DNA from: an uncultured Acidobacteriota bacterium
GTDB taxonomy: Bacteria > Acidobacteriota > Vicinamibacteria > Vicinamibacterales > CAVVIG01
Assembly: GCA_902825985.1 (NCBI GenBank)
Contig: CADEDC010000003.1
Location: 10,926 to 74,925, forward strand
DNA length: 64,000 nt
Reading direction: 5' to 3'
Below, piece after piece: positions 30,374 through 49,267 of the stretch. A model generated the notes under the pieces. That model was not told where the DNA came from. It saw nothing but the letters and a program-made list of their open reading frames with translations, and did not search any database. How positions within the stretch are numbered: the stretch's first letter is position 1; every line of letters starts with the position of its first letter. A program made the position numbers and the translations under genes.

Positions 30374-31342
30374 ATGCAGCTGATCGACGTCGGCGAGGGT
30401 CCGCTTCTCGATGAGATCCTTCGCGAAACCCACACGATTTGGGCCGACCGGATCGATCCGGCGCCGTTCCGGCAGTTCTGGCTGGCCCAGCTCAGGACGG
30501 CCTGGGGCCGCGAGCATCTGTGCCGCGTCGCGCTGGTCGACGGCGGCCGGGTGCTGGCGAGCACCAAGGTGTACGAGTTCACCGCTCGGGTGGACGGCGA
30601 GGCCGTCGGCGTCTGCGGCCTGGGAGCCGTGTTCACGCAGACGGCGCACCGCCGCAGCGGCCACGCCCGCGAGCTGATCGACCGGGTGCTGGCGCGCGCC
30701 GTCGGGCGCGGCCAGCGGCTCGCCCTGCTGTTCTCGGAGATCGGCATGGACTACTATGCGCGCATCGGCTTCACGGCGGTCGCCACGCACGACGCCACCT
30801 TCCGCGTGACGCCGCCCCGGCAGCGCGGCGCGCCGGCCACCATGGTGCGGGCCGGCGACGATCGCGACTACGAGGCCGTCGTCAGGCTCGGTCGTGCGCA
30901 GGCGGCGCCGTTCCGCTTCCACCTCGATCGCGATCGCAGCGTGGTTCAGTACGGCATCGTGAAGCAGCGGCTGCGCGCCGGGTTCGGGCCGGCCGGCCTT
31001 CGCGAGCTGCAGTTCTTCATCGCGGAGGAGGGGACATCCGCGGTGGCCTACGTCGCGATCGGCGTCGAGGGCGACCGCTGGACGCTGCTGGAGTGTGGCG
31101 ATCGTGACGTGACGGGAGCGCGGGTCGGCGCCATCCTGCAGGTGCTGCTGGCCCGCGAGCCGTCGCGCCGCCCGCCGGTGATTGTCGGACGGCTGCCGCC
31201 TGGCTTCCTGCCGCCGCAGATGGCGGTGGTCGACCGGCACGAAGCCAAGGAGCTGATGATGATCCGGCCGCTCGGCGACTTCCGCCTCGCCGCGCCGCTC
31301 GCCGAGGATCAGGTGCTGTACTGGCGCAACGATCTGTTCTGA
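30374..31342 (+). CDS. GNAT family N-acetyltransferase (two-domain, Eis-like layout?)
   Basis: The acetyl-CoA motif VFTQTAHRRSGHARELIDRVLARA. At 322 aa it is longer than a single GNAT domain. Confidence 0.65.
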   Translation: MQLIDVGEGPLLDEILRETHTIWADRIDPAPFRQFWLAQLRTAWGREHLCRVALVDGGRVLASTKVYEFTARVDGEAVGVCGLGAVFTQTAHRRSGHARELIDRVLARAVGRGQRLALLFSEIGMDYYARIGFTAVATHDATFRVTPPRQRGAPATMVRAGDDRDYEAVVRLGRAQAAPFRFHLDRDRSVVQYGIVKQRLRAGFGPAGLRELQFFIAEEGTSAVAYVAIGVEGDRWTLLECGDRDVTGARVGAILQVLLAREPSRRPPVIVGRLPPGFLPPQMAVVDRHEAKELMMIRPLGDFRLAAPLAEDQVLYWRNDLF

Positions 31343-31403
31343 CGCATCGGCGACGGCAGGTCGGCGACAGGCGCGGATGGATGACGATTTCCGGAGACGA
31401 GTG

Positions 31404-33809
31404 ATGGTCGATTTCGAGAAGCTCGGAGCGTTCTACCTCGGTCGCGAGTACGACGCGGCGGCCGGCACGGCGGCTGGCGATCTCGTGTTGTACGATTCCC
31501 GGGATCTCGTCACGCACGCGCTGATCGTCGGCATGACCGGCAGCGGCAAGACCGGCCTCGGCATCTCGCTCATCGAGGAGGCCGCCATCGACGGCGTCCC
31601 GGTCATCGTCGTCGACCCGAAGGGTGACCTGACGAACCTGCTGCTGACGTTTCCGGACCTGCGTCCGGAGGACTTCCAGCCGTGGGTCAGCGAGGACGAA
31701 GCACGGCGCGCCGGCCGGAGCGTCCCCGAGTTCGCCGCCGACCAGGCGGCGCGCTGGCAGACGGGGCTGGCCGACTGGGGGCAGGACGGCGCCCGTATCA
31801 GGCGCCTGAAGGACGCCGCGGACTTCGCCGTCTTCACGCCCGGCAGCACCATCGGCACGCCGGTGTCGGTCCTGCGCTCGTTCACGAAGCCGGATCTCGA
31901 CGATGCCGAGCTGGTGCGCGACCGCGTGCAGTCGACCGTCTCGAGCGTGCTCGCGCTCGCCGGCATCGACGGCGAGCCGGTGAAGAGCCGCGAGCACATC
32001 CTGCTGTCGACGCTGCTGCTCGCCGCGTGGCAGGCGGGCGAGAGCCCCGACCTGGCGACGCTGATCGGCCGCGTGCAGCAGCCGCCGATGGCGACGATCG
32101 GCGTGATGGACATCGACTCGTTCTTCCCGCAGAAGGATCGCTTCGAGTTCGCGATGGCGATCAACTCGCTCCTCGCCTCGCCGGGATTCGCCGTGTGGAC
32201 CGAAGGGGTGCCGCTCGACGCCGCGTCGTTCCTGCGGACCGCGAGCGGCAAGCCGCGCGTCTCGATCTTCTCGATCGCGCACCTCGACGACAGCCAGCGC
32301 ATGTTCTTCGTCACGCTGCTGCTGAATGCGCTGATCGGCTGGATGCGAACCCAGTCCGGCACGTCGAGCCTGCGCGCGATGTTCTACATGGACGAGATCT
32401 TCGGCTTCTTTCCGCCGGTGGCGAACCCGCCGTCGAAGCCGCCGCTGCTCACGCTGCTCAAGCAGGGACGCGCGGCCGGCCTCGGGGTCGTGCTGGCGAC
32501 CCAGAACCCGGTGGATCTCGACTACAAGGGGCTCTCGAACATCGGCACCTGGTGGCTCGGCCGGCTGCAGACCGATCGCGACAAGGCCCGCGTGCTCGAC
32601 GGTCTCGAAGGAGCGAATACCGGCAGCGTCAATCGCGACGAGATCGACGCGCTGCTGTCTGGCCTGTCGAGCCGGGTCTTCCTGATGCGCAACGTGCACG
32701 AGGACGGCAACATCCTCTTCCAGTCGCGGTGGGCGCTGTCGTACCTGCGCGGTCCGCTGAGTCGCGACGAAGTGAAACGGCTCGCCGCGGGCCAACTGGC
32801 GCGCGCCGGCGAGCCAGCTGCCGCGACCGCGACGACCGCGCCTCGTGGGGTCTCGGCGGGTGCCCCGGTGACCGCCACCGCCCCGGCTGCCGCCCCCGCT
32901 GCCGCCGTCCTGCCGGCGACCCGAACGCTCCTGCCGCCTGACGTGCCGCAGTACTTCACCGGGCTGGTCACCGCGACCCGCCCGCTGGCCCCGGCGATTT
33001 ACGGTGCCGCCGACCTTCGCTTCACCGACGCCAGACGCCAGGTGGACGTCACCCGCTCGGTGGCGTACATGACCGGTGTGAGCGACGGCCCGGTGCCGGT
33101 GGACTGGACGGTCGCCGAATCGGTGGACGTCGCGCCCGACCAGCTGCAGACCGTCGCGCCGGACGGGGCGACCTATGACGAGGTGCCGGGCCCGGCGACG
33201 AAGGCGAGAAACTACGCCGCGTGGTCGAAGCAGTTCAGCACCTGGCTGTCGTCGAACGAGTCGATCGAACTGATGGTCAGTCCCACCACCGGCGAAGTCT
33301 CGAAGCCGGACGAATCCGAACGGGACTTCCGCGCCCGTCTCCATCACGCCGGCCGCGAGGTCCGCGACGACGAGATCGAGCGGCTGCGCAAGAAGTACGC
33401 GCCGAAGCAGGCCGCCCTGCAGGAAAAGCTGCGGCGCGCGCGACAGGCGGTCGAGAAGGAGACGGAGCAGGCCTCGGGCGCGAAGCTGCAGACCGCCATC
33501 TCGTTCGGCGCCACGCTGGTCGGGGCGCTGCTCGGCCGCAAGGCGATGTCCGCGGCCAACGTCGGCCGGGCGACGACCGCGGCGCGCAGCGTCGGCCGAA
33601 CGATGAAGGAGTCCGAGGACATCGGGCGGGCCCGGGAGAACGTCGCGACCCTCGAAGCGCAAATTGCGGCGCTCGACGACGAACTCGCCGCCGAGACGGC
33701 GGCCCTGCACGTCAGCACCGACGTCGTGAACGAGAAGCTCGACACGGTGACGCTCAAGCCGAAGCGCGGCCAGGTGACCGTGAAGGTGGTTGCGCTGGTC
33801 TGGCAGTAG
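31404..33809 (+). CDS. HerA/DUF853-like P-loop ATPase with long C-terminal extension
   Basis: Walker A VGMTGSGKTGLGISLIEEAAIDGVPVIVVDPKGDL, Walker B MFYMDEIFGFFPP, and VVLATQNPVDLDYKGL. The C-terminal ~330 aa comprise a Pro/Ala linker plus coiled-coil. Start at MVDFEKLG (31404); ATG 31377 is also possible. Confidence 0.75.
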   Translation: MVDFEKLGAFYLGREYDAAAGTAAGDLVLYDSRDLVTHALIVGMTGSGKTGLGISLIEEAAIDGVPVIVVDPKGDLTNLLLTFPDLRPEDFQPWVSEDEARRAGRSVPEFAADQAARWQTGLADWGQDGARIRRLKDAADFAVFTPGSTIGTPVSVLRSFTKPDLDDAELVRDRVQSTVSSVLALAGIDGEPVKSREHILLSTLLLAAWQAGESPDLATLIGRVQQPPMATIGVMDIDSFFPQKDRFEFAMAINSLLASPGFAVWTEGVPLDAASFLRTASGKPRVSIFSIAHLDDSQRMFFVTLLLNALIGWMRTQSGTSSLRAMFYMDEIFGFFPPVANPPSKPPLLTLLKQGRAAGLGVVLATQNPVDLDYKGLSNIGTWWLGRLQTDRDKARVLDGLEGANTGSVNRDEIDALLSGLSSRVFLMRNVHEDGNILFQSRWALSYLRGPLSRDEVKRLAAGQLARAGEPAAATATTAPRGVSAGAPVTATAPAAAPAAAVLPATRTLLPPDVPQYFTGLVTATRPLAPAIYGAADLRFTDARRQVDVTRSVAYMTGVSDGPVPVDWTVAESVDVAPDQLQTVAPDGATYDEVPGPATKARNYAAWSKQFSTWLSSNESIELMVSPTTGEVSKPDESERDFRARLHHAGREVRDDEIERLRKKYAPKQAALQEKLRRARQAVEKETEQASGAKLQTAISFGATLVGALLGRKAMSAANVGRATTAARSVGRTMKESEDIGRARENVATLEAQIAALDDELAAETAALHVSTDVVNEKLDTVTLKPKRGQVTVKVVALVWQ

Positions 33810-36714: not shown

Positions 36715-36969
36715 CAGCGGCTCCCGCCGGCGGACGCGGCGCCGGCCGCCGGCATCGGCAGCCGACCTGTCGGCATCGCCCGATAGCCGCGGCGCCGGCT
36801 GGCGGTTTTCCGCGCGATCCGCGGCGTCGAGCCGGCAACCTGCCGGACGCTTACTGCGAGGCGTCGACCGACGGAATACCGCATGCCATCTCCCGCTGTT
36901 TTTGCACGCAAAATCGACGTCGAGCAACTATATTCAGCCCCTTCGACCGTTGTAAAGTTGCGGCTCATC

Positions 36970-37953
36970 ATGAGACTCGCAATCGTCGGTTCCGGCGCCG
37001 TCGGTGGGTTCTTCGGCGCGAAGATGCAGCGCGCAGGACATGAGGTGTTCTTCCTGGCGCGCGGCGCACACCTCCATGCCATGCGGACGCGTGGTCTCAC
37101 CGTCCGCAGCCCGAAAGGCGAGTGGCGCCTCAAGGTCCGGGCCGAAGAGCGCGGCGACGGCCTCGGCGAGATGGACTTCGTCTTCTACGCGGTGAAGACC
37201 TACAGCAATCCCGAGGCGCTGCTGCTGCTGAACGTCGTCGCCGGCGATCACGCCGTCGTGCTCACGTTGCAGAACGGCGTCGACAGCGCCCGCGAGATCG
37301 AGGAGGTCATCGGCCTCGGGCGTGTCATCGGCGGGGCGGCGTATGTCGCGACCGCGCTGACCGAGCCCGGCGTCATCACCCAGACCGGTCCGCATCGCCG
37401 CGTCGCGTTCGGCGAGACCACCGGCGACGTGTCGCGCGTGTCGACGCGGTGTCTGCTGCTCGACACCGTGTTCAAGGAGGCCGACATCGTCTCCGAGCCG
37501 TTCGCGAACGGCTGGGTGCCGCTGTGGGAGAAGTTCGTGTACCTGGCGCCCTTTGCCGCGTTCACCGGAGCGTCCCGCCAGCCGATCGGCGCGCTGTGGA
37601 CCGATCCGGATGCCCGCGCGCTGATGGTGGCGGCGTTCAAGGAGGTGCTCGCCGTCGCGGCGGCAGAGCGGGTGAAGGTGAGGCCCGGCACCTTGAAGCG
37701 GATTCTCGCGTACGTCGACGGCCTCGACCCGACCGTGCGATCGTCATTGCTCATCGATCTCCAGCAGGGCAAGCCGACCGAAGTGGAAGCGCTGCTCGGT
37801 GCGGTCGTTCGTCGGGCCAGGCGGCGGCGCGTGAAGACGCCGATCATGAACACGCTGTACGCCGCCCTGCGCGAACGTCCGCCGGTGGTGGTGCCGCAGC
37901 CGCGCATCCCGCCGCTGCCGCCGAGCGTCTTCACCTACGACCTGCCGCGATAG
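36970..37953 (+). CDS. panE: 2-dehydropantoate 2-reductase
   Basis: MRLAIVGSGAVGGFFGAKMQRAGHEVFFLARGAHL plus C-terminal S-SLLIDLQQGKPTEVEAL (ApbA_C). Confidence 0.8.
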   Translation: MRLAIVGSGAVGGFFGAKMQRAGHEVFFLARGAHLHAMRTRGLTVRSPKGEWRLKVRAEERGDGLGEMDFVFYAVKTYSNPEALLLLNVVAGDHAVVLTLQNGVDSAREIEEVIGLGRVIGGAAYVATALTEPGVITQTGPHRRVAFGETTGDVSRVSTRCLLLDTVFKEADIVSEPFANGWVPLWEKFVYLAPFAAFTGASRQPIGALWTDPDARALMVAAFKEVLAVAAAERVKVRPGTLKRILAYVDGLDPTVRSSLLIDLQQGKPTEVEALLGAVVRRARRRRVKTPIMNTLYAALRERPPVVVPQPRIPPLPPSVFTYDLPR

Positions 37954-40900
37954 GCTTCGAGACACCGTTCCCGCGCCTGCCGCGGCACGAGCGGAAAGGT
38001 CTCGAGCACGTGGGCATACTCCTCCGTCGTCAGGTCGTACAGACGTGCGACCATGGCGTTCAGCCGCGTGTCCATCTCGGTACGAACCGCGGCGTCCGAT
38101 TCCCGCCCGCCGTCCGTCTTCGACCGTGACAGGCGGCGCGCCAGCCCGGCAATCACCGGGAACGCCGCACCAGCCTCGGGCCGGGTTGGCACCGGCAGCC
38201 GCTCGACGATGGCGGTGGTGACATGGGTGGTGACACGCTGCCGGACGAGGTAGTTCACGACAACGCTGTTGAACAGGCCGCACAGAAAGTGCTGCGCGGC
38301 GAGCGGCAGTTGCGTCTTGAGGCAGAACACCGTGTGGGTCGAGGCGCTGCCGGACGGCAGCAGCGCCGCGATCAGCGTCTGGCGATTGGTCGCCGCGGCG
38401 ACGTCGCGATAGGCGAGCCGCGGCCGATGTACGCGGGCCCCCAGCCGGCGTCGCGCGTCAGCCGCGCCGATCGCGTGTTCGACGCGCGCGAGCTCGACGA
38501 CGAACGGATGCAGCCACTTGCCCTCGACGACCGGCAGGCCGTGGCCGGCCGGCCGCAGCAGGTGCCGATCGTCGGTGGCGTTCAGCTCGCGGCCGAACTG
38601 CGCCGACCAGCCATCGCGGGACCCGAGCGGCGCGAATCGCCGGGCGGCGCGCTCGACGAGCGTCAGGTCGATCGGCTGGCGCACGTCCGGCACCGCGAGA
38701 TCGGCGCCGGAGAGCCGCTGCAGCAGGCTGCACGACAGATGCACCGGGAACCAGTCGGCCCGCCCGCTGTCCTCCGCTTCGAGCACCGCCGGATCGCTCT
38801 CGCCGCCGCGGATCCCCAGACGCTGCGTCGGCGATCCTTTCGTCGCTGTCACGAGCGCGAATCGCATGCTGCGGTGAATCGGAAACACGGCGCGGCGATT
38901 GTCGAATGCCACGACGCCGTCGACGTCGCACTGCGAGAACAGGCGGCGGCGTAGCGGGCCGCTGCCATGGTCGCTGAGGACGCCGCCCGGCAGCACCAGG
39001 CCGAATCGGCCGCCCGGACGCAGCAGCGCCATCGTCCGGTCGACGAACAGCTGATAGCGGTTGGCCTGGCCGTGGCTGGTTCCGTCGTAGACGCCGGAAT
39101 CGCGACAGAAGCGAACGGCGCGGGCGGCGTCGGCCTTGGCCGCGGCACGCGGCACGTCGTGTCCGGTATCGCCCCGCATCATGTCCCACGGCGGATTACC
39201 GACGATCGCGTCGAAGCCGGCGTGCGCCAGCCGTCGGCCATCGCGGTCGAAGAAGACCTCCGGGAACTCGAGCTCCCAGTGGAAGAAGCGGCGGGCGGCG
39301 GCGATATCGGCGGCGCTCGCGAGGTACGGTTCGACGATATGGGTCGGCAGCTCGCTGCGGCCGCGAAGGATCGCATCGGCGAGCGCGCCGTAGGTGGCTG
39401 GCGGGGCCGCGGCGCCGGCCGTGAACCATCGCGCACACCAGAGGTCCGCGACCCGGCGCCAGCGGCTCAACGCGGAATCCTGGCGGTCGAGGCCGGCCAG
39501 CAGCCGCTCCTTGGCGCGCACCTGATCCACGGTATCGCCCGGTCCGGCGAGCGAGAAGCGTGCCGGCACGACGGTGCGCGCCGCTGCCTCGAACGCATCG
39601 TCGCCTTCGAAGAGCTGCGGCCCTGGCGCCGGTCGACGGCTGCGGCGGCGCGGTGCGGGCGCCCGCGTGAGCGACGCCAGCCACGCACCAACCAGACTGT
39701 CTCCGGTCCGCAGGTGATGATCGAGGAACGACAGCGGCCGATCGGCGGCGAGCGTTGCCAGCCACAGCGACAGCCGGGCGAGCTGCACGGCCATCGGATT
39801 CAGGTCGACGCCGAACAGGCAGCGTTCGGCAATCAGCCGACGGAAGCGGGCACGGTCGGCCTCCGTCAGGTCGGCGGCGTCGCAGTCGCCGTCGGCGACC
39901 AGTGCGTCCTCGTACGCCGCAGCGAGGAACGCGCACGCGGTGACGAGGCAGGCACCGCTGCCCATCGACGGGTCGAGCACGCGCAACGCGAGAATGTCGT
40001 GCGGCCGGCGGCCGGCCACCAGCGGCATCAACGTCTGGCGCACGAGATAGCGGGCGATCGGCTGCGGGGTATAGAACGAGCCCGTCGCCTTGCGGGCGCC
40101 GGAGCCCGGGGCGAGCCGCAGGGCGCCGTGACCGGCACCGCCATCCCACGTCGGCTCGTAGTCGAGCAGTGTCTCGTAGACCGCGCCGAGCTGCTCGACG
40201 CCCAGATCGCCGTAGGCGATCGGTTCGCGGCCGCCGCGGGCAATCGACGGCCGCGTGGTCAGCGCCAGCACGGCACGTCCGGCGGCCCGGTCGTCGAGAT
40301 TGCGGCGTTCCACGAAGGGCGCACGTCCGGCATCGAACAGCCGGCCGTTGAACGGCGTGACGGTCAGCTGTCCGGTCCGGCAGCCGGCGTGTGCCAGCCG
40401 GCTCACGGCGCGCAGGCCGTCCCACAGGCCGTTGACGCGCCCGCGCTCGGCCGCGGCGCGAAGCGCATCGATGCTGTAGCCGTGGCGGTAGACCGGATGC
40501 CACATCGGCACCAGGCCGCGCGATTCGGCGAACAGCAGGAACAGCATGCGGTAGACGACGGTCAGTGCCTGCGCGAGCGCGGCATGGCTGTCGATCGACC
40601 GGCGCCCCGCGACGACCGCCGCAAGGATCTCTTCAGAAGCGCGCAGCACCCCGTGCCGCAGCGACCGGCAGACGCCGGCGGCGAACGCATCGGACTGGCC
40701 GACGAGCGCGGCGAGCCCCTGCGCCTGCATCTCGGCCCGCCCGATCAGCCACAGCGATGCGAAGACCTCCACGTCGTCGGCAGAAAGATCCAGATCGATC
40801 TCGACCCAGCGGCGAGCCTGGGTCGAGGCCCCGTCGAGGATGCGCAGGTGGATCCCGTTGCAGAGGATCGCCCAGCGCGAGGCGTGAGCCCGCGCCGTTG

Positions 40901-41234
40901 CCAATGCCGACCGCCAGAGCGGCTCGAGCGGCGCGCCCCACGGCGCGACGGTCCATGGGACAACGGCCCGGCCGGCCCGCATCTCCAGCACCAGCAGCGG
41001 CGGCGCCGCTACGGGTGTCGCGGCCGGTTCGTAGCCGAGCGCGCGCGCCACCGGCTCGACCGCACGCTCGGCAATCGCACGCATGCCCGATGCGGGACCA
41101 AGTCCCCGGCTGTGCTCGCGGGCGGCGCGGTAGAGTCGATGGGCGTGTCCGATCTCTGGATGGCCCGACAGTGCGTCGAGCTGCGGCAGGGCGCCCAACG
41201 TGATCAGCTGTCCCCGAATGCCGTGTCGCACCAC
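37935..41234 (-). CDS. large N6-adenine DNA methyltransferase, PglX/DrmMI/Eco57I-type (1,099 aa)
   Basis: GSFYTPQPIARYLV, VLDPSMGSGACL (motif I), FGVDLNPMAVQLARLSLWL, FHWELEFPEVF and FDAIVGNPPW (motif IV). GTG start 1 nt after the helicase stop. Confidence 0.85.
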   Translation of the reverse strand: MVRHGIRGQLITLGALPQLDALSGHPEIGHAHRLYRAAREHSRGLGPASGMRAIAERAVEPVARALGYEPAATPVAAPPLLVLEMRAGRAVVPWTVAPWGAPLEPLWRSALATARAHASRWAILCNGIHLRILDGASTQARRWVEIDLDLSADDVEVFASLWLIGRAEMQAQGLAALVGQSDAFAAGVCRSLRHGVLRASEEILAAVVAGRRSIDSHAALAQALTVVYRMLFLLFAESRGLVPMWHPVYRHGYSIDALRAAAERGRVNGLWDGLRAVSRLAHAGCRTGQLTVTPFNGRLFDAGRAPFVERRNLDDRAAGRAVLALTTRPSIARGGREPIAYGDLGVEQLGAVYETLLDYEPTWDGGAGHGALRLAPGSGARKATGSFYTPQPIARYLVRQTLMPLVAGRRPHDILALRVLDPSMGSGACLVTACAFLAAAYEDALVADGDCDAADLTEADRARFRRLIAERCLFGVDLNPMAVQLARLSLWLATLAADRPLSFLDHHLRTGDSLVGAWLASLTRAPAPRRRSRRPAPGPQLFEGDDAFEAAARTVVPARFSLAGPGDTVDQVRAKERLLAGLDRQDSALSRWRRVADLWCARWFTAGAAAPPATYGALADAILRGRSELPTHIVEPYLASAADIAAARRFFHWELEFPEVFFDRDGRRLAHAGFDAIVGNPPWDMMRGDTGHDVPRAAAKADAARAVRFCRDSGVYDGTSHGQANRYQLFVDRTMALLRPGGRFGLVLPGGVLSDHGSGPLRRRLFSQCDVDGVVAFDNRRAVFPIHRSMRFALVTATKGSPTQRLGIRGGESDPAVLEAEDSGRADWFPVHLSCSLLQRLSGADLAVPDVRQPIDLTLVERAARRFAPLGSRDGWSAQFGRELNATDDRHLLRPAGHGLPVVEGKWLHPFVVELARVEHAIGAADARRRLGARVHRPRLAYRDVAAATNRQTLIAALLPSGSASTHTVFCLKTQLPLAAQHFLCGLFNSVVVNYLVRQRVTTHVTTAIVERLPVPTRPEAGAAFPVIAGLARRLSRSKTDGGRESDAAVRTEMDTRLNAMVARLYDLTTEEYAHVLETFPLVPRQARERCLEAYRGRS

Positions 41235-41235
41235 G

Positions 41236-43671
41236 TCAGGGCACCGCGGCCAGCCACCGGCCGGCCGTCACCGAGGTGTCGACAGCTGCTGACGCCAGGC
41301 GAGCCAGGCGCCGGTCGTTCGCCGCCGCCAGCGACTGCCACTCGGCGTCGAGCAGGTCGCGCCGCCGGTCGGCACGCCGGTCGAACAATCCCGGCTGGAA
41401 GAGTGCCGCGATCGCGGGCGTCGTCGCCCGGGCGATCGCCTCGGCGCGCCGGAGCGCCGTGCTCCAGAACGTCCTGTGTGCAGCCAGCGACGGCTGCATC
41501 GCTGCCAGGTGCTCGCCGATCGCGGCCATCGCCGGTCGGTCGATTCCCGGGCCGGCCGATCGCACCGCCGACCACACGTCCGCCGACAGGCGGAGGGGGA
41601 CGATGGCGGCTGCCACCCGGCGTCCACAGCCGTCGACGGCGACGACCTCGGCGACCAGCAGGGTGTCGCCGGCCAGCCCGGCGCGAAGGCGAGGTCGCGC
41701 CCGCATGACGAGCAGCCGGTCGTGCTGCACCACGCCGGCGGCACGTCGACCCCGCCCCGCAACGCGGCGGCTCAGCGCGATGCGGGCGGCTTCGGCGGCC
41801 GCGCCGTCGGCGTCCGTCGGCGTCCGGTCGCTGCCGGCCGACGCCGGTGCGTTGTCTCGGCCGATGCCTCGCGCCCGGTGGAGTTGCGATTCGAGCGGGT
41901 TCGCCATCGCGACGTCCTGACGCGCCGTCGCGACGCGGTGACGCAGCCGGCGGAGCAGGTCGTCCTCCACCCGATGCCGTGCGACCAGGTGGAACGCGTG
42001 GACCGTCCGTCCCTGGCCGATGCGGTCGACCCGTCCCGTCCGCTGCTCGAGCCGCGCCGGATTCCACGGCAGCTCGAGGTGAATGACACATCGGCAGGCG
42101 TGGTGCAGGTTCAGCCCCTCGCCGGCCGCATCGGTGGCGAGCAGTATCGGCGCGCCGCCACGGGTGAACGCGTCGACCACGGCCCGCCGTTCGCCGCGCG
42201 TCAGGCCGCCGTGCAGGACGAGGGCGTCCGGCGCCACCAGGCGCTGGACGTGGGCCAGGGTGTCGCGGTACTCGGTGAAGACGATGACCGCCTCGTGCCG
42301 CTGCCGCAGGCAGCCGAGCAGCCGCGTCAGACGGGCGAGCTTCGACTCGCGGGCGCAGGCCAGGACCGCGGCGTCGGCCAGCCGCTGCAGCAGATCACGT
42401 TCGCGTTCGACGTCGCGGAGACCGGGACCGTCGAGCGGCGGCGCCTCGTCGCTCACGTCGAACTCACCCTGTCCGTCGTCGAGCGGCAGGCGCAGCTGCG
42501 TGTCGTCGAACGGTGCCGTCCGCTCGAGTGTGGCGAGGCGGCGGACCACCGACCGGCGCAGCGATTCCGCACTCGACAGCGCCCGCTTCCACAGCACCGA
42601 GCGCAGCAGTATCGCGTGCGGCTCGTCACCACGCTCGGCGCGGGTCGCCGCGGCATAGCGGTCGAGCGCCGCGTACATCCGCTGCTCGGCACCGGTCGTC
42701 CGGATGCGGAGCTGATGGACATGCCGGTTCGTCTGCAGGTGAACGTCGGCTCGCGATCGTTGAAAGCGCAGGCATTCGTCGTCGTGCCGACCGAGCGCAC
42801 AGAGCGCGGCGAAGGCGTCGCGGTCGCCGTTGTGTGGCGTGGCGGTGAGCAGGACGACGAAGAGGGCCGTCGCGCAGAGGGCCGACACCGCGGCATGGCG
42901 GTCCGTGCCCGGCGCGACCAGATGCGCCTCGTCGACGATCACGACGTCCCACAGGCCGGCCCGGGTCGACGGCAGCACCTCCGGACGCTTGACGTAGTCG
43001 ACCGATGCGATGGCGAGACCGAGGGTGGTCCACGGGCTCACGCCCAGCGGCAGGTCGGCCGCCCGCCGGGCGACGGCCGGCAGGTCGACGATGTCGGCGT
43101 CGAGCCCGAACCGTTGCCGCAATTCGTGCTGCCACTGGTCGCGCAGACCGGCCGGCGTGAGCACCAGGGCAGAATCCGCCGCACCCCGCCGCAGGAGTTC
43201 GGCCAGCAGGATCCCGGCCTGCACCGTCTTGCCGAGACCGACCGCATCGGCCAGCAGCACGCGGGTTGCGTCCCCTCGCAGTAGCGCACGGGCCGGCTCG
43301 AGCTGGTGCGGCAGCACCTCGATGGCGGCGCCGTCTGCCGAGCGCAGGGCCTCCCAGGGCCCGCTGCCGGCCACCATGTCGCAGCACGCGGCTCGCCAGC
43401 GTCGCCGGCCACATCGCCTGGCGTACGCCGGCAGCGACGCACGCAGATCCGGGCCGCCGGACCCCGGCGCCTGGCGGGCGATCGGTTCGATGATTTCGAA
43501 CGGCTCGAGCAGCAGCCGCTGTTCGCGCCCGTTGTCCGGTCCGAGGCCGGTCACCGTCAGGACGCGGCAGGCCGGCGTGCCGCCGACCGCCGCCACTTGC
43601 CAGCGCTCGCGCCTGACGCGTATCCGATCGCCGATCCGGAAACCCTCGTGTCCAGGAGCACAATCCGCCAT
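41236..43671 (-). CDS. SNF2-family (RapA-like) helicase/translocase
   Basis: LLADAVGLGKTVQAG (motif I), VIVDEAHLV (II), LLTATPHNG (III) and LEQRTGRVDRIGQ (VI). Start chosen at MADCAPGHEGFRIGD (ATG 43671). Confidence 0.85.
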   Translation of the reverse strand: MADCAPGHEGFRIGDRIRVRRERWQVAAVGGTPACRVLTVTGLGPDNGREQRLLLEPFEIIEPIARQAPGSGGPDLRASLPAYARRCGRRRWRAACCDMVAGSGPWEALRSADGAAIEVLPHQLEPARALLRGDATRVLLADAVGLGKTVQAGILLAELLRRGAADSALVLTPAGLRDQWQHELRQRFGLDADIVDLPAVARRAADLPLGVSPWTTLGLAIASVDYVKRPEVLPSTRAGLWDVVIVDEAHLVAPGTDRHAAVSALCATALFVVLLTATPHNGDRDAFAALCALGRHDDECLRFQRSRADVHLQTNRHVHQLRIRTTGAEQRMYAALDRYAAATRAERGDEPHAILLRSVLWKRALSSAESLRRSVVRRLATLERTAPFDDTQLRLPLDDGQGEFDVSDEAPPLDGPGLRDVERERDLLQRLADAAVLACARESKLARLTRLLGCLRQRHEAVIVFTEYRDTLAHVQRLVAPDALVLHGGLTRGERRAVVDAFTRGGAPILLATDAAGEGLNLHHACRCVIHLELPWNPARLEQRTGRVDRIGQGRTVHAFHLVARHRVEDDLLRRLRHRVATARQDVAMANPLESQLHRARGIGRDNAPASAGSDRTPTDADGAAAEAARIALSRRVAGRGRRAAGVVQHDRLLVMRARPRLRAGLAGDTLLVAEVVAVDGCGRRVAAAIVPLRLSADVWSAVRSAGPGIDRPAMAAIGEHLAAMQPSLAAHRTFWSTALRRAEAIARATTPAIAALFQPGLFDRRADRRRDLLDAEWQSLAAANDRRLARLASAAVDTSVTAGRWLAAVP

Positions 43672-43803
43672 GGTCCTGCCGTCGGCGGCTGGCAGATTCC
43701 GCAATGGCGTCCAGGACCCCTTGTCCGATCGGCCACTTGCGGACGGCCGCAGCCGCGTGCCACGAGACAAGGCAACCGCGGTGCCGGCCGCACGCCGTGG
43801 CGG

Positions 43804-46504: not shown

Positions 46505-49267
46505 CTACCGGTGCGGCAGCGCGCCGGGATCGGCAGACGCGCGATTGAGCCGCGCCAGCAGCGGCGCGAAGCCGGTTCGCTGCGGATCGAAGAACCCCCA
46601 CTCGGGAACCGCCGGCTGGAGGGTTACCGGCAGCGCCGCCGGCGCGTGACCCGGCTTGCGCTTCTTCTTGCCCTTCCCGGGTCTCTGCCGGTCCGTTGCC
46701 GGTCCCGACGTGCCGTGCGCCGATGACGGCGGCGGCACGGCTGGCGGCGCTGCCGCCACCACGACGGGCGGTTCGGGTCGCGGTGCGGGCGGTGCCGCGG
46801 CCACCGGCACGGCCCTCGCCACCGGTGCTGCAGCGGGCGTCGGTTCGACGGCGGTGCCCCCGGCGATCGAGTCGTGGGCGTGCGACGCGTCCGCGGTGAA
46901 CGTCCACTCGGCGGTGACCTGCCCGGTCGCCGGTTCGCCAACCGCGACATCACGATCGCGCGACGCTCCGGTAGTGGCGGCGGCGGTCGCCGCGCTGTTG
47001 AGCAGCCAGTCGAGCGTCGCCGGCGGCGGTGCGTCGGTCGCCGAAGCCGCGGTCGGCGTCGCCGGCACCGTCGTGGCCTCGGGCTGCGTGGCGGCGAAGA
47101 GCGCCGTGATCTCGTCAGCCACGCGATCGACGGCTGGCGGGGTGGTCTCCGCCGGCGGTGGGGTCGCGAAGAACACGTCGGTCAGATCCGGCACGCCGGG
47201 CATGCCGGCCGGCGCGTCCGTGCTCGGGCTCACCGGCTTGACGGTGTTCGACGGCTGGAGCGAGACGATCGGCTCGAAGGCCACGGCCGCCAGGCTCGTG
47301 TCGATCGTCGCGTCGAAGATCGACGGCGCGCTGTCGACGGGCAGCGGTGCGGTGGGCTGGAACGCCACGGCGGCGAGGTCGGTGTCGATCCGGGCGTCGA
47401 AGATCGATGGCGTCGGATCGACGGGCAGCGGCTGCGTCACCGCGACGACGCGCGACGCCTCAACGGCAGCGGCGGCGGCGCGCAGCGCTTCCTCGGCGGC
47501 GCGAGCCCGGTCCTGGGCCGCCTGGGCCAGGCGCTCGGCCTCCCGTCCGTTCTCGTCCGACCCGCGTCCCCGCTGAGCCGCGTGCGCGTCGAACTCGCTG
47601 AGGACGCTGGCGGCGACCGCCGGCCGTGACGGGAACACGAGCGGTTCGGCGTTGAATTCCGGCTTCGGCTTGTCGGCCGGCGCCGGGGCATCGTCGGTTT
47701 TCAGCGACTTGATGTCGCGGCGAATCGCCGACAGCATGTCCTGCCAACCGGCCTTGAGTCCCGGCTGCTCCGGTGGCGCTTCCGCCTCGGCCGGTCTGGC
47801 CGGCGAGGGTGGCGGCGGCAGGGCGTCGATCGCGGCACGCCAGTCGGCCTGCGGCCGCTCTTCCCACGTCGGCGTCGGCATCGGTTCCGGCGGCGTGAAC
47901 GCCGGCCACTCGACCTTCGCCACCGCCGGCAGCGTCTCGTGCGGCCTCTCGGTCGCGTCGCCGGCGCGGCCGTCGGCCGCCGACAGCGGCGCGCCCTCGA
48001 TCGATGCCTGACGCCAGCCGCCGCCGCCGGCGTCCGGCACGACGAGCGCCGCCGCGGCGGCCGCCGTTTCGACGGTCGCGACCGCCTCGCCGGCCGCCTC
48101 GGTCGTGCGCTCGATCAGCGGTTCGGCGGCCGGCCCGGCGGGCGAGTCGTCGACCGTCTCGGCCGAGAACACCGCCAGCACCTCGGCGGCGAACAGCGAA
48201 CGCTCTTCCTCGAGCTGTTCCCGGGCGTCGACGACGACCGGTTCCGGCAGGTCGATGTCGCCGGCGAGCACGTGGCTCAGATCGACGACCGGAATCATCG
48301 GTTGCGCGTTCGCCGACGACTTCACCGTGTGCAGCTCGCGGACGAAGTCGTCGAGGTCGACCGCTTCCGACGTCAGCTCCATGCTGCCGTGCGCGGCGGT
48401 CGGCGTCGCGGCGGTCGTCGGCTGGCTCGCCGCGCCGGCGAATTCGTCGGCGTCGAGCGCAATCTCCTCCCACTCCTCCTCGGGGCGGCGCGACGTCTCC
48501 GGCGGCGCCGCCGGCGCGAACGCGACCTCGCCGTCAATCGACGGCGTTTCCGTCTGCGCAGCGCCCCCGGCGTCCGAGGTCCTCGGGTGTTCCACCGCAG
48601 CCCGCTTGATCGGAATGGCAGCGAACTCGCCGAACAGCGCTTCCGGATCCTCGATGACCATGTCCGGATGCACGTCCACGGTGGCGTAGAGCGGTGTCGC
48701 CGCCGGCGCGGCCGCCGCCGTGCCGTGCTCGGGCTGCCACGCGAGTTGCGGCTCCGGCTCGGGGCGCAGCGCCGACGGCGGGGCGATCGGTGGTGCGGCG
48801 GCGGGTTGCTCGGCCCACGCCGCCTCGAGGTCGGCCTGGGCGGCGGCGAGCGCGGCACGTTCGACGGCGCCGCGTGCGAGGTACTCGGTGATCTCGGCGC
48901 TGAACACGGCCGGGTCGCAGCCGTCCTCACCCTTGTCCTCGTCGTGCGAGGCGCGCCGCAGCCGGCCGAGGAGGCCGCCGATCTTCTTCTTCCGTGTCTT
49001 CTCCTCGCCGCGCAGTACCGGAATGACGAGCGTCTGCACGTGGGCGCCGGCGGCGCCGAGTTCGCGCAGCCGTTCGGCGAGCGCCGCTTCGTCCCTGGGG
49101 AGCAGCAGCTGCGACGTCAGGACCAGGTCGGGAACCCGCGGGCCGAGCGCCGCGAGCGCCTCGTCGGCGCTTTCGCCGATGACGAGCTCGGCGCGCAGCT
49201 GCTCGACGAGCAGGCCGACGTTCGCCGCTTGTCGGCGATCGGGTTCGATGGCGAGGATCAGTGACAT
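46505..49267 (-). CDS. pseudo-receiver domain protein with ~800-aa Pro/Ala/Glu-rich low-complexity region
   Basis: The N-terminus MSLILAIEPDRRQ...PDLVLTSQLLLP...VIPVL has a CheY-like layout, but Thr/Ser replace the phospho-acceptor Asp. The rest is compositionally biased. Confidence 0.6.
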   Translation of the reverse strand: MSLILAIEPDRRQAANVGLLVEQLRAELVIGESADEALAALGPRVPDLVLTSQLLLPRDEAALAERLRELGAAGAHVQTLVIPVLRGEEKTRKKKIGGLLGRLRRASHDEDKGEDGCDPAVFSAEITEYLARGAVERAALAAAQADLEAAWAEQPAAAPPIAPPSALRPEPEPQLAWQPEHGTAAAAPAATPLYATVDVHPDMVIEDPEALFGEFAAIPIKRAAVEHPRTSDAGGAAQTETPSIDGEVAFAPAAPPETSRRPEEEWEEIALDADEFAGAASQPTTAATPTAAHGSMELTSEAVDLDDFVRELHTVKSSANAQPMIPVVDLSHVLAGDIDLPEPVVVDAREQLEEERSLFAAEVLAVFSAETVDDSPAGPAAEPLIERTTEAAGEAVATVETAAAAAALVVPDAGGGGWRQASIEGAPLSAADGRAGDATERPHETLPAVAKVEWPAFTPPEPMPTPTWEERPQADWRAAIDALPPPPSPARPAEAEAPPEQPGLKAGWQDMLSAIRRDIKSLKTDDAPAPADKPKPEFNAEPLVFPSRPAVAASVLSEFDAHAAQRGRGSDENGREAERLAQAAQDRARAAEEALRAAAAAVEASRVVAVTQPLPVDPTPSIFDARIDTDLAAVAFQPTAPLPVDSAPSIFDATIDTSLAAVAFEPIVSLQPSNTVKPVSPSTDAPAGMPGVPDLTDVFFATPPPAETTPPAVDRVADEITALFAATQPEATTVPATPTAASATDAPPPATLDWLLNSAATAAATTGASRDRDVAVGEPATGQVTAEWTFTADASHAHDSIAGGTAVEPTPAAAPVARAVPVAAAPPAPRPEPPVVVAAAPPAVPPPSSAHGTSGPATDRQRPGKGKKKRKPGHAPAALPVTLQPAVPEWGFFDPQRTGFAPLLARLNRASADPGALPHR
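47271..47431 (-). repeat. in-frame 84-bp (28-aa) tandem duplication inside the pseudo-receiver gene
   Basis: PLPVDPTPSIFDARIDTDLAAVAFQPTA / PLPVDSAPSIFDATIDTSLAAVAFEPIV. The DNA copies start at ~47271 and ~47355. Confidence 0.85.

Follow-up and report, generated by a model that had tools for sequence, protein, structure and literature searches.

On a 64,000-nucleotide stretch of contig CADEDC010000003.1 from an uncultured bacterium of the Vicinamibacterales (Acidobacteriota), which we refer to as the window, two adjacent genes encode a predicted SNF2-type helicase and a predicted N6-adenine DNA methyltransferase (MTase) (Table 1). The stop codon of the helicase gene (41238–41236) lies one nucleotide from the GTG that starts the MTase gene (...GTG CCC TGA C GTG GTG...), and the two genes are one translationally coupled operon, as a preliminary description of this DNA had proposed and as the conservation of the junction among relatives bears out. 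Both open reading frames (ORFs) have the codon pattern of real genes, with high GC at third positions in a window of ~70% GC. The helicase ORF (41236–43770) would encode 844 amino acids if started at TTG 43770, ATG 43671 being the most plausible start. A public entry for an identical MTase (P0001) starts at Met51 and has 1,049 amino acids, which drops 50 conserved N-terminal residues (window 41085–41234) and masks the 1-nucleotide junction. Because G5, G8, L10, R39, G46 and P47, all of which lie upstream of Met51, are invariant in 41 homologues, we take GTG 41234 to be the true start.

Table 1. Genes, junction and predicted domains of the helicase–MTase operon in the window (aa, amino acids; AF2, AlphaFold2; m6A, N6-methyladenine).
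Feature	Coordinates	Strand	Basis or remark
SNF2/RapA-like ATPase (DrmD/ArmA/BrxHII-like), operon gene 1	41236..43671	-	811 aa from ATG 43671
Helicase N-terminal beta-rich domain (aa 1-115; RxGDRVRVRRxRWxV...LTLxGxGxxN...PFE)	43327..43671	-	family conservation
Helicase C-terminal domain (aa 586-811), with QPGLFD loop (aa 759-764) at 41380-41397	41236..41916	-	AF2
Stop/start junction TGA-C-GTG, 1-nucleotide spacer, translational coupling	41234..41238	-	sequence, kept in relatives
N6-adenine DNA methyltransferase (MTase), operon gene 2	37935..41234	-	1,099 aa, GTG start
MTase N-terminal nuclease-fold domain (aa 1-150), predicted to be catalytically degenerate	40785..41234	-	AF2, weak MmeI_N match
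MTase helical spacer (aa 151-370), DrmMI/MmeI_hel-like	40125..40784	-	PADLOC, AF2 helices
MTase gamma-class m6A catalytic domain (aa 371-800), with FYTP, motif I DPSMGSG and motif IV NPPW	38835..40124	-	motifs at least 95% conserved
MTase C-terminal target-recognition-type region (aa 801-1099)	37935..38834	-	type IIG profiles

The SNF2/RapA-like identity first suggested for the upstream protein is upheld by its Pfam domains (SNF2-rel_dom and Helicase_C) and by its best PADLOC model, DrmD (E = 2.6e-81), with BrxH (1.1e-58), HmaA (1.4e-55) and DpdE among its further PADLOC matches. The NCBIfam model for DrmD (NF038317) gave 302.6 bits against a cut-off of 610 and covered amino acids 14–622 only, and that for RapA gave 154 bits against a cut-off of 576. 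Walker A (GLGKT), the DEAH box (VDEAH), motif III (TATPH) and motif VI (QRTGRVDRIGQ) are all present and show little or no variation in the family alignment. With these motifs intact, the helicase is predicted to be an active SNF2-type translocase on double-stranded DNA, of the RapA/BrxHII/DrmD/ArmA lineage. Its N-terminal beta-rich domain, which drew no separate Pfam or PADLOC match, is covered both by the DrmD match (from amino acid 14) and by a BLASTP match to an ARMADA-like helicase (from amino acid 9).

The C-terminal segment of the helicase (amino acids 586–811) is modeled as a small alpha/beta domain with a predicted local distance difference test score (pLDDT) of 80.4. Foldseek searches of the Protein Data Bank (PDB) returned RapA as the best match, at a non-significant E of 0.24–0.44, and found no nuclease fold, and the segment has no Pfam or PADLOC match. 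A nuclease hidden in the helicase C-terminus was rejected because no profile matched and because the Foldseek matches, led by RapA, included no nuclease fold; the modeled segment is instead probably a small domain of the DrmD/ArmA/RapA type that weakly resembles RapA. The loop QPGLFD within it is exact in 101 of 117 homologues and differs by a single residue in a further 15. This loop, 49–77 amino acids from the C-terminus, fits the bacterial beta-clamp-binding pattern QxxLF.

These features of the helicase bear on a reading in which the pair primarily serves genome maintenance coupled to transcription or repair, rather than complete methylation of its sites, the RapA-like ATPase acting on stalled RNA polymerase or other bound proteins while the MTase marks the exposed DNA. 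Speaking for this reading are RapA as the best, albeit non-significant, match of the C-domain among solved structures, the sub-threshold NCBIfam RapA match, the conserved QxxLF-type loop and the presence of HU and PolA genes in the neighborhood. We consider it very unlikely, however, because the similarity to RapA falls below every threshold, because the neighboring genes have no functional link to the pair and because QPGLFD sits inside a folded domain in the AF2 model. Moreover, QxxLF occurs at the equivalent place in two of four bacterial DrmD/ArmA-like plasmid helicases (L082 and L083), whereas three of the five relatives inspected (Deinococcus DrmD, a Mesorhizobium helicase and an archaeal Natrinema helicase) lack a counterpart. 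QPGLFD resembles a beta-clamp-binding peptide and stands as an unexplained lead.

The downstream protein matches the Pfam families Eco57I (E = 2.4e-20; 73.7 bits, cut-off 25.3 bits) and N6_Mtase (7.6e-13). Its best PADLOC model is DrmMI (4.8e-95), which spans the helical spacer and catalytic domain only, and further PADLOC matches include type IIG models and PglX (1.8e-10), all from models that carry no curated cut-off; the NCBIfam PglX models gave 28–38 bits against cut-offs of 400–900. FYTP, DPSMGSG, FHWELEFPEVF and NPPW, which like the SNF2 motifs had been read from the letters in the preliminary description, are present in the translation and invariant or nearly so in family alignments. 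The catalytic domain holds a helical insert at amino acids 521–640. Toward the C-terminus, PADLOC type IIG profiles match amino acids 746–1099 (5e-15) and TIGR02987 covers amino acids 673–1095 (64.8 bits, below its cut-off), in a region whose motifs include FGRELNATDD, RLAYRDVAxATNR, STHTVFCL and TFPLV. Sequence comparison with solved structures gave generic MTase-domain matches only (BsaXI, CamA and type I HsdM). The Pfam and PADLOC matches agree with the original assignment to a PglX/DrmMI/type IIG-like m6A MTase with a C-terminal target-recognition-type region, and the protein is predicted to be a type IIG-derived N6-adenine enzyme of the MmeI/PglX/DrmMI/ArmB lineage. We regard this identity and architecture of the two proteins as very probably correct.

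The first 380 amino acids of the MTase were modeled from a 41-sequence alignment with a pLDDT of 88.5, amino acids 51–147 forming an alpha-beta-beta-beta-alpha-beta-beta unit that is followed by a long helical region. The helical part is covered by the PADLOC DrmMI model (1.5e-23 for amino acids 221–380) and by type IIG profiles; the Pfam families MmeI_hel (E = 0.05) and MmeI_Mtase matched below threshold, as did MmeI_N at amino acids 103–159 (E = 0.003; 18.4 bits, below the 27-bit cut-off). In the PDB, Foldseek found no significant match to the N-domain, the leading ones being the type IIL enzyme DrdV (best E = 0.19) and HsdR nuclease fragments. Across 60 aligned sequences, the strands at amino acids 75–100 contain no conserved Asp or Glu and essentially no Lys. 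Because these strands lack conserved acidic residues and Lys, we conclude from the model that the N-terminus is probably a nuclease-fold domain of the type IIG/MmeI type whose canonical D...(D/E)xK active site has been lost. An active canonical nuclease in this position was rejected on the non-significant Foldseek matches, the sub-threshold MmeI_N match and the column statistics, which show no catalytic triad. The MTase N-terminus and helicase C-terminus, both of which had been left unassigned, can therefore now be given probable folds, and the earlier view that neither protein shows a clear nuclease signature stands.

That the pair is a split type ISP- or type IIG-like restriction enzyme with a cryptic nuclease, a non-canonical site in the N-domain (e.g., D134, E145 and D147) cleaving DNA after SNF2-driven translocation, is very improbable in our judgment. 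The domain does appear well folded and of the MmeI_N type, its conserved residues (W121, N126-G127, R131, D134, R137, R141, E145 and D147) include D134 (95%), E145 (77%) and D147 (90%) alongside several Arg, and the order of nuclease-like domain, MTase and recognition region, together with a superfamily 2 (SF2) motor, recalls type ISP. However, neither Lys nor a conserved acidic residue is found in the expected PD-(D/E)xK strands, the conserved residues sit downstream of the expected MmeI catalytic positions (the acidic ones downstream of the region matching the MmeI post-catalytic segment), and the N-domain is the least conserved domain of the protein (33% mean pairwise identity). In addition, no nuclease gave a significant structural match, and a lineage-wide restriction enzyme of fixed specificity would be unusual.

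We scanned one genome per species and found at least 567 candidate genomic stretches encoding a relative, of which the best 80 loci, almost all from metagenome-assembled genomes (MAGs) of Vicinamibacterales or other Acidobacteriota, were used for locus analysis with a view of ±10 kb around each locus. For each of the two proteins there are thousands of homologues. The top 120 MTase matches are all ~1,100 amino acids long and 54–66% identical to the query, nearly all over 95–100% of its length. Among 1.84 billion cluster representatives, ~40 full-length clusters (at 50% identity) of ~1,080–1,160 amino acids are 41–57% identical to the MTase, ranking above relatives of 1,230–1,500 amino acids that are 31–39% identical and align piecewise. 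Because these full-length clusters outrank the larger, piecewise-aligning relatives, the compact ~1,100-amino-acid MTases form a distinct subfamily.

Co-conservation of the two genes in related genomes, which had been named as a check, is strict: wherever more than ~1.2 kb of sequence precedes the MTase (70 loci), the helicase is the gene immediately before it, and every one of the 10 loci without a helicase match is cut at a contig end. In 16 of 50 loci the helicase stop and the MTase start overlap by 4 nucleotides; in ~32 of the 50, the distance between the two genes is between -14 and +25 nucleotides. One might take the pair for what is left of a DISARM or ARMADA locus that lost its effector and is decaying without function, given the missing effector, the shortness of both proteins relative to their defense homologues and an MTase ORF that is apparently split in a minority of loci. 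The conservation pattern effectively refutes this explanation, which we consider extremely improbable: the catalytic motifs are invariant across ~60–120 sequences at 40–66% identity, full-length ORFs are retained in dozens of the species-level genomes examined, the coupling of the two genes is preserved, and the splits come from some loci of draft MAGs, where assembly frameshifts are possible.

Clustering the flanking ORFs of the 80 loci, and annotating the 20 most recurrent families with Pfam, revealed no recurrent third gene within ±10 kb of the pair. DrmA, DrmB and DrmC were likewise absent within 10 kb in every one of the 80 loci. The recurrent families are all metabolic or housekeeping, comprising TauE, PanE, QueF, an amidohydrolase, a sigma54 regulator, HU, an NrfD/molybdopterin oxidoreductase, a prolyl oligopeptidase, the E1, E2 and E3 components of 2-oxoglutarate dehydrogenase and Tad pilus genes. 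Certain orders of these neighbors keep recurring, such as [Pyr_redox, sigma54 regulator, HU, QueF] helicase MTase [PanE, amidohydrolase], and a relative with 62% MTase identity shares gene order with the window over ~23 kb (Tad pilus, M14, helicase, MTase, PanE, DUF2461, ALDH, DUF87 and DUF1800). Pairwise identities of the MTase correlate with those of the helicase (Spearman 0.81), TauE (0.80), the amidohydrolase (0.76) and the sigma54 regulator (0.86), compared with 0.20–0.80 for housekeeping genes among themselves. Relatives of the pair were absent from viral contigs. The MTase recognition region tracks the catalytic core at all levels of divergence, the only outliers involving one truncated sequence, and because its identity follows that of the core there is no sign of target-recognition-domain swapping.

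Within the window itself, the operon is flanked by a PanE gene, which is convergent with the MTase gene and overlaps its 3′ end, and by an M14 peptidase gene, and the remainder is core chromosome, including PolA, pyruvate carboxylase, PcnB and Tad pilus genes. No tRNA gene and no gene for a DUF1998 protein, a YprA-like helicase, PLD, PglZ or BrxC was found in the 64 kb. The preliminary description was thus right that the pair and its neighbors hold no intact nuclease, PLD, PglZ or DUF1998, and right also that the GC content looks native (0.72–0.74 across the pair, 0.67–0.75 over the entire window) and that mobile-element flanks are missing. An origin from a mobile element was rejected on the lack of tRNA genes, of GC deviation and of relatives in viral contigs. 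As would be expected of a clade-conserved orphan MTase, the pair combines strict synteny, correlated divergence and a housekeeping context with the absence of a cognate nuclease in cis, and to judge from these genomes it is a vertically inherited chromosomal fixture of the Vicinamibacterales.

A few details of these loci deserve mention in their own right. PanE (36883–37953, plus strand) and the MTase gene overlap at their 3′ ends by 19 nucleotides in the window, and PanE stands tail-to-tail directly downstream of the MTase in many loci (e.g., L029, L034 and L036). A promoter and terminator scan, which is uninformative for high-GC acidobacterial sequence, showed no terminator-like structure between them. 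Four loci that carry the pair (L033, L046, L072 and L076) come from MAGs labeled Bifidobacteriaceae or Acidimicrobiia; L033 has the Vicinamibacterales-type neighbors M14 and PanE, and these contigs may reflect mis-binning rather than horizontal transfer. QueF (preQ0 reductase), which is absent from the window, lies ~1–2 kb upstream on the same strand, directly before the helicase, in L001, L004, L022, L037 and L038, and somewhere upstream in 25 loci, often beside HU. DpdE-type SNF2 helicases act in 7-deazaguanine DNA modification systems, and the adjacency of QueF may be plain synteny.

Relatives on plasmids look different. The nearest are less than 40% identical and larger, and all five that we inspected adjoin a very large DEAD/DEAH or DrmA/DUF1998 helicase, an effector-type partner, in surroundings with integrase, toxin–antitoxin or HNH genes. 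The order is helicase, MTase and very large DEAD/DEAH helicase in Natrinema and Streptomyces; very large helicase, helicase and MTase in Mesorhizobium; and drmD, MmeI-like MTase, drmA and DUF1998 in Deinococcus, while Pseudanabaena has a related arrangement with an inserted toxin–antitoxin pair. By BLASTP, amino acids 120–1099 of the window MTase are 25% identical to the Natrinema ARMADA-like MTase and amino acids 9–593 of the window helicase are 32% identical to an ARMADA-like plasmid helicase (E = 2e-69 and 2e-79 for the pair). Both window proteins are shorter than their defense homologues, the helicase at 811 versus 930–1,070 amino acids and the MTase at 1,099 versus 1,430–1,840.

This comparison brings in the most serious alternative, in which the pair is an anti-phage or anti-plasmid system without a nuclease in cis, acting either by BREX-like exclusion, with the SNF2 motor working on unmethylated DNA, or as a self/non-self sensor for an effector encoded elsewhere. 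The best profile matches of the two proteins are to defense proteins (DrmD, DrmMI, BrxH, HmaA and DpdE), the homologous pair contributes to defense in ARMADA and DISARM class 1 (10.1101/2025.09.15.676423; 10.1101/2021.12.28.474362; PMC13463889), and defense without a nuclease has precedents in BREX, which has no known nuclease, and in DISARM, whose PLD nuclease DrmC is dispensable (10.1101/2021.12.28.474362). Set against these points are the vertical inheritance and stable housekeeping context of the pair, with no defense island, mobile genes or recurrent third gene, the absence of relatives in viral contigs, and the trimming of both proteins relative to their defense homologues. Moreover, the target-recognition region shows no diversification, unlike armB, the variable gene of its E. 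coli island (PMC13463889). We consider a defensive role possible but unlikely.

The preliminary description had envisaged, among other possibilities, a new two-gene defense module. The effector-less form of the pair is indeed new; the pairing itself has already been described in DISARM class 1 and ARMADA. The defense label is doubtful because inheritance is vertical, recognition domains are not swapped, viral relatives are missing and the mobile relatives inspected always come with a third, effector gene. Domestication for methylation is no less likely than defense, and the copy in the window, instead of working as a conventional restriction system, may label the DNA of its own cell.

In the explanation that we favor, the pair is an m6A methylation module that is assisted by an SNF2 motor, lacks an effector and has become fixed through vertical inheritance, a compact version of the helicase-plus-methylase module of DISARM class 1 and ARMADA; we hold this explanation as a whole with evenly balanced confidence. 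Its functional part, a domesticated epigenetic or housekeeping methylation role, is favored over defense because of the evolutionary pattern (vertical, syntenic and in a housekeeping context), and here too we would put belief and doubt at about the same weight. The helicase and MTase would form a complex, in which the C-terminal region of the MTase would read a short, probably asymmetric site and the enzyme would methylate one adenine there, as DrmMI does at ACACAG. Using ATP, the SNF2 ATPase would drive the complex along DNA or strip off bound proteins, which would let sites left fully unmethylated after replication be re-marked. The output would be a chromosome-wide m6A mark with an epigenetic or housekeeping purpose; marking of the chromosome rather than cleavage of foreign DNA is proposed because no nuclease is found in cis.

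Several points weigh against this explanation. The characterized relatives of both proteins all act in anti-phage defense (DISARM class 1, ARMADA and BREX-associated BrxHII), and an effector could still be encoded outside the ±10 kb viewed around each locus. The pair also evolves somewhat faster than its surroundings, the mean pairwise identity being 47% for the MTase and 39% for the helicase versus 54–71% for the neighbors. Furthermore, methylation of an asymmetric site does not pass through a hemimethylated state, which fits poorly with classical regulation of the Dam or CcrM type.

The favored explanation can be extended to a bolder one, in which the pair is a lineage-wide, ATP-dependent machine for chromosomal adenine methylation, derived by domestication of a defense module, whose SNF2 remodeler is needed if asymmetric sites are to be methylated de novo again once replication has passed and is perhaps tethered to the replisome through QPGLF(D), making it a bacterial counterpart of the eukaryotic DDM1/LSH partnership of remodeler and DNA methyltransferase. 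We think that this extension is quite unlikely.

The function of the SNF2-plus-MTase half of DISARM class 1 and ARMADA by itself is a question in its own right, since both systems tie it up with the YprA/DrmAB effector. Here the module occurs naturally isolated and is apparently maintained by purifying selection across many species-level genomes of soil Acidobacteria, an abundant group, which offers a clean system for asking whether the SNF2 ATPase serves methylation, site discrimination or something else. If the housekeeping role is correct, the pair would document how a defense module was turned by domestication into an epigenetic system of a whole clade, and the MTase would be the first orphan enzyme with an obligatory remodeler partner; if the defensive role is correct, the pair would be a minimal system that is nuclease-free or acts in trans. 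DefenseFinder and PADLOC would presumably report the pair only as an incomplete DISARM or as 'DMS_other'.

Two other parts of the window are recorded here. At 30374–33809 on the plus strand, a GNAT acetyltransferase gene is followed by a gene for an 810-amino-acid HerA/DUF87-like P-loop ATPase with weak PADLOC mad8/HerA matches. A DUF87 gene is also found in the closest large contig (L086), a HerA-like ATPase occurs in just one of 80 Vicinamibacterales loci by tblastn, and the two genes could be a separate, uncharacterized module. At 46505–49267 on the minus strand lies a gene for a 920-amino-acid protein that has no Pfam or PADLOC match; its N-terminal segment of ~130 amino acids looks receiver-like by eye and is followed by a very long Pro/Ala-rich low-complexity region, with a basic KKKRK stretch near the C-terminus. 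In 10 loci, a conserved counterpart of the N-terminal part of this protein lies upstream of the pair.

Among known systems, the closest to the pair is DISARM class 1, reportedly described by Ofir et al. in 2018. The two share an SNF2 helicase immediately before a large type IIG-like N6-adenine MTase, a beta domain at the helicase N-terminus and a helical spacer in the MTase, and DISARM components are the best PADLOC and NCBIfam matches of both window proteins. DISARM class 1 encodes DrmD and DrmMI together with DrmABC, and DrmMI of the Serratia sp. SCBI system methylates ACACAG, less completely when the other DISARM genes are missing (10.1101/2021.12.28.474362). By contrast, the window pair lacks DrmA, DrmB (DUF1998) and DrmC (PLD), so that the core genes of the system are not there, and it sits in a vertically inherited chromosomal setting rather than on a plasmid or in a defense island. 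Its DrmD score, about half the NCBIfam equivalog cut-off, indicates homology but not equivalog status, and its proteins have 811 and 1,099 amino acids compared with 1,026 and 1,484 in the Deinococcus plasmid example of DISARM class 1.

The combination of a RapA/BrxHII-like SNF2 helicase and a PglX-like adenine methylase is common to DISARM class 1 and ARMADA (10.1101/2021.12.28.474362; 10.1101/2025.09.15.676423). ARMADA joins ArmA and ArmB to a YprA-like ArmC, and to ArmD as well in type II (10.1101/2025.09.15.676423; PMC13463889), and mutating either the ArmA ATPase or the NPPW motif of ArmB abolishes defense (10.1101/2025.09.15.676423). The window has the adjacent BrxHII/RapA-like ATPase and PglX-like MTase of ARMADA types I and II, but neither it nor any of the loci has a YprA-like ArmC helicase-nuclease or an ArmD; in addition, its MTase recognition region lacks the variability of E. 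coli armB, and the pair lies outside any defense island. BREX likewise combines a nuclease-less MTase of the same superfamily, PglX, with an SNF2-type helicase (BrxHI or BrxHII), but PglZ, BrxC, BrxA and BrxB accompany the pair neither in the window nor in the other loci, and the PglX scores are far below cut-offs. For Hma, the HmaA match of the helicase comes with no HmaC-like ATPase adjacent to the pair; membership in Hma or MADS by way of the HerA-like ATPase 4 kb away was rejected, its matches being weak, its gene on the opposite strand and its occurrence confined to that single locus of the 80. RapA shares with the helicase the SNF2 motor and a C-domain resemblance, with scores that fall well short of equivalog level.

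The type IIG and IIL enzymes (MmeI, DrdV, BpuSI and Eco57I) resemble the window MTase in their succession of N-terminal nuclease fold, helical spacer, gamma-class m6A MTase (motif I, then NPPW) and C-terminal recognition region, DrdV being the top, non-significant structural match of its N-domain. They differ from it in that the window MTase appears to lack the catalytic D...(D/E)xK, and with it an active PD-(D/E)xK nuclease, that it matches all three MmeI families below threshold and that it is obligately paired with an SNF2 ATPase. Type ISP enzymes (LlaGI and LlaBIII) unite a nuclease, an SF2 motor, an MTase and a recognition region in one chain. In principle the pair offers the same motor, m6A MTase and recognition region for asymmetric sites, but it distributes them over two proteins, uses an SNF2/RapA motor and has no active Mrr or PD-(D/E)xK nuclease. 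Dam and CcrM are like the window MTase in their clade-wide vertical inheritance, housekeeping context and lack of a cognate nuclease; they are, however, small, stand-alone enzymes of palindromic sites, whereas the window MTase is a 1,099-amino-acid type IIG derivative with an ATP-dependent partner.

Because the effectors and nucleases that define them were looked for and not found, the pair does not belong to DISARM, ARMADA, BREX or Hma, nor to the type IIG restriction-modification enzymes. It is homologous to DrmD with DrmMI and to ArmA with ArmB, and is predicted to work like them. In the literature we found no paper describing a compact, effector-less, lineage-wide pair or a stand-alone SNF2 and Eco57I pair, and nothing relevant on Vicinamibacteria methylomes or a methylation motif. 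The pairing of an SNF2 helicase with a PglX-like MTase is already known from the defense systems; what is new is its compact, effector-less, chromosome-fixed and lineage-conserved form.

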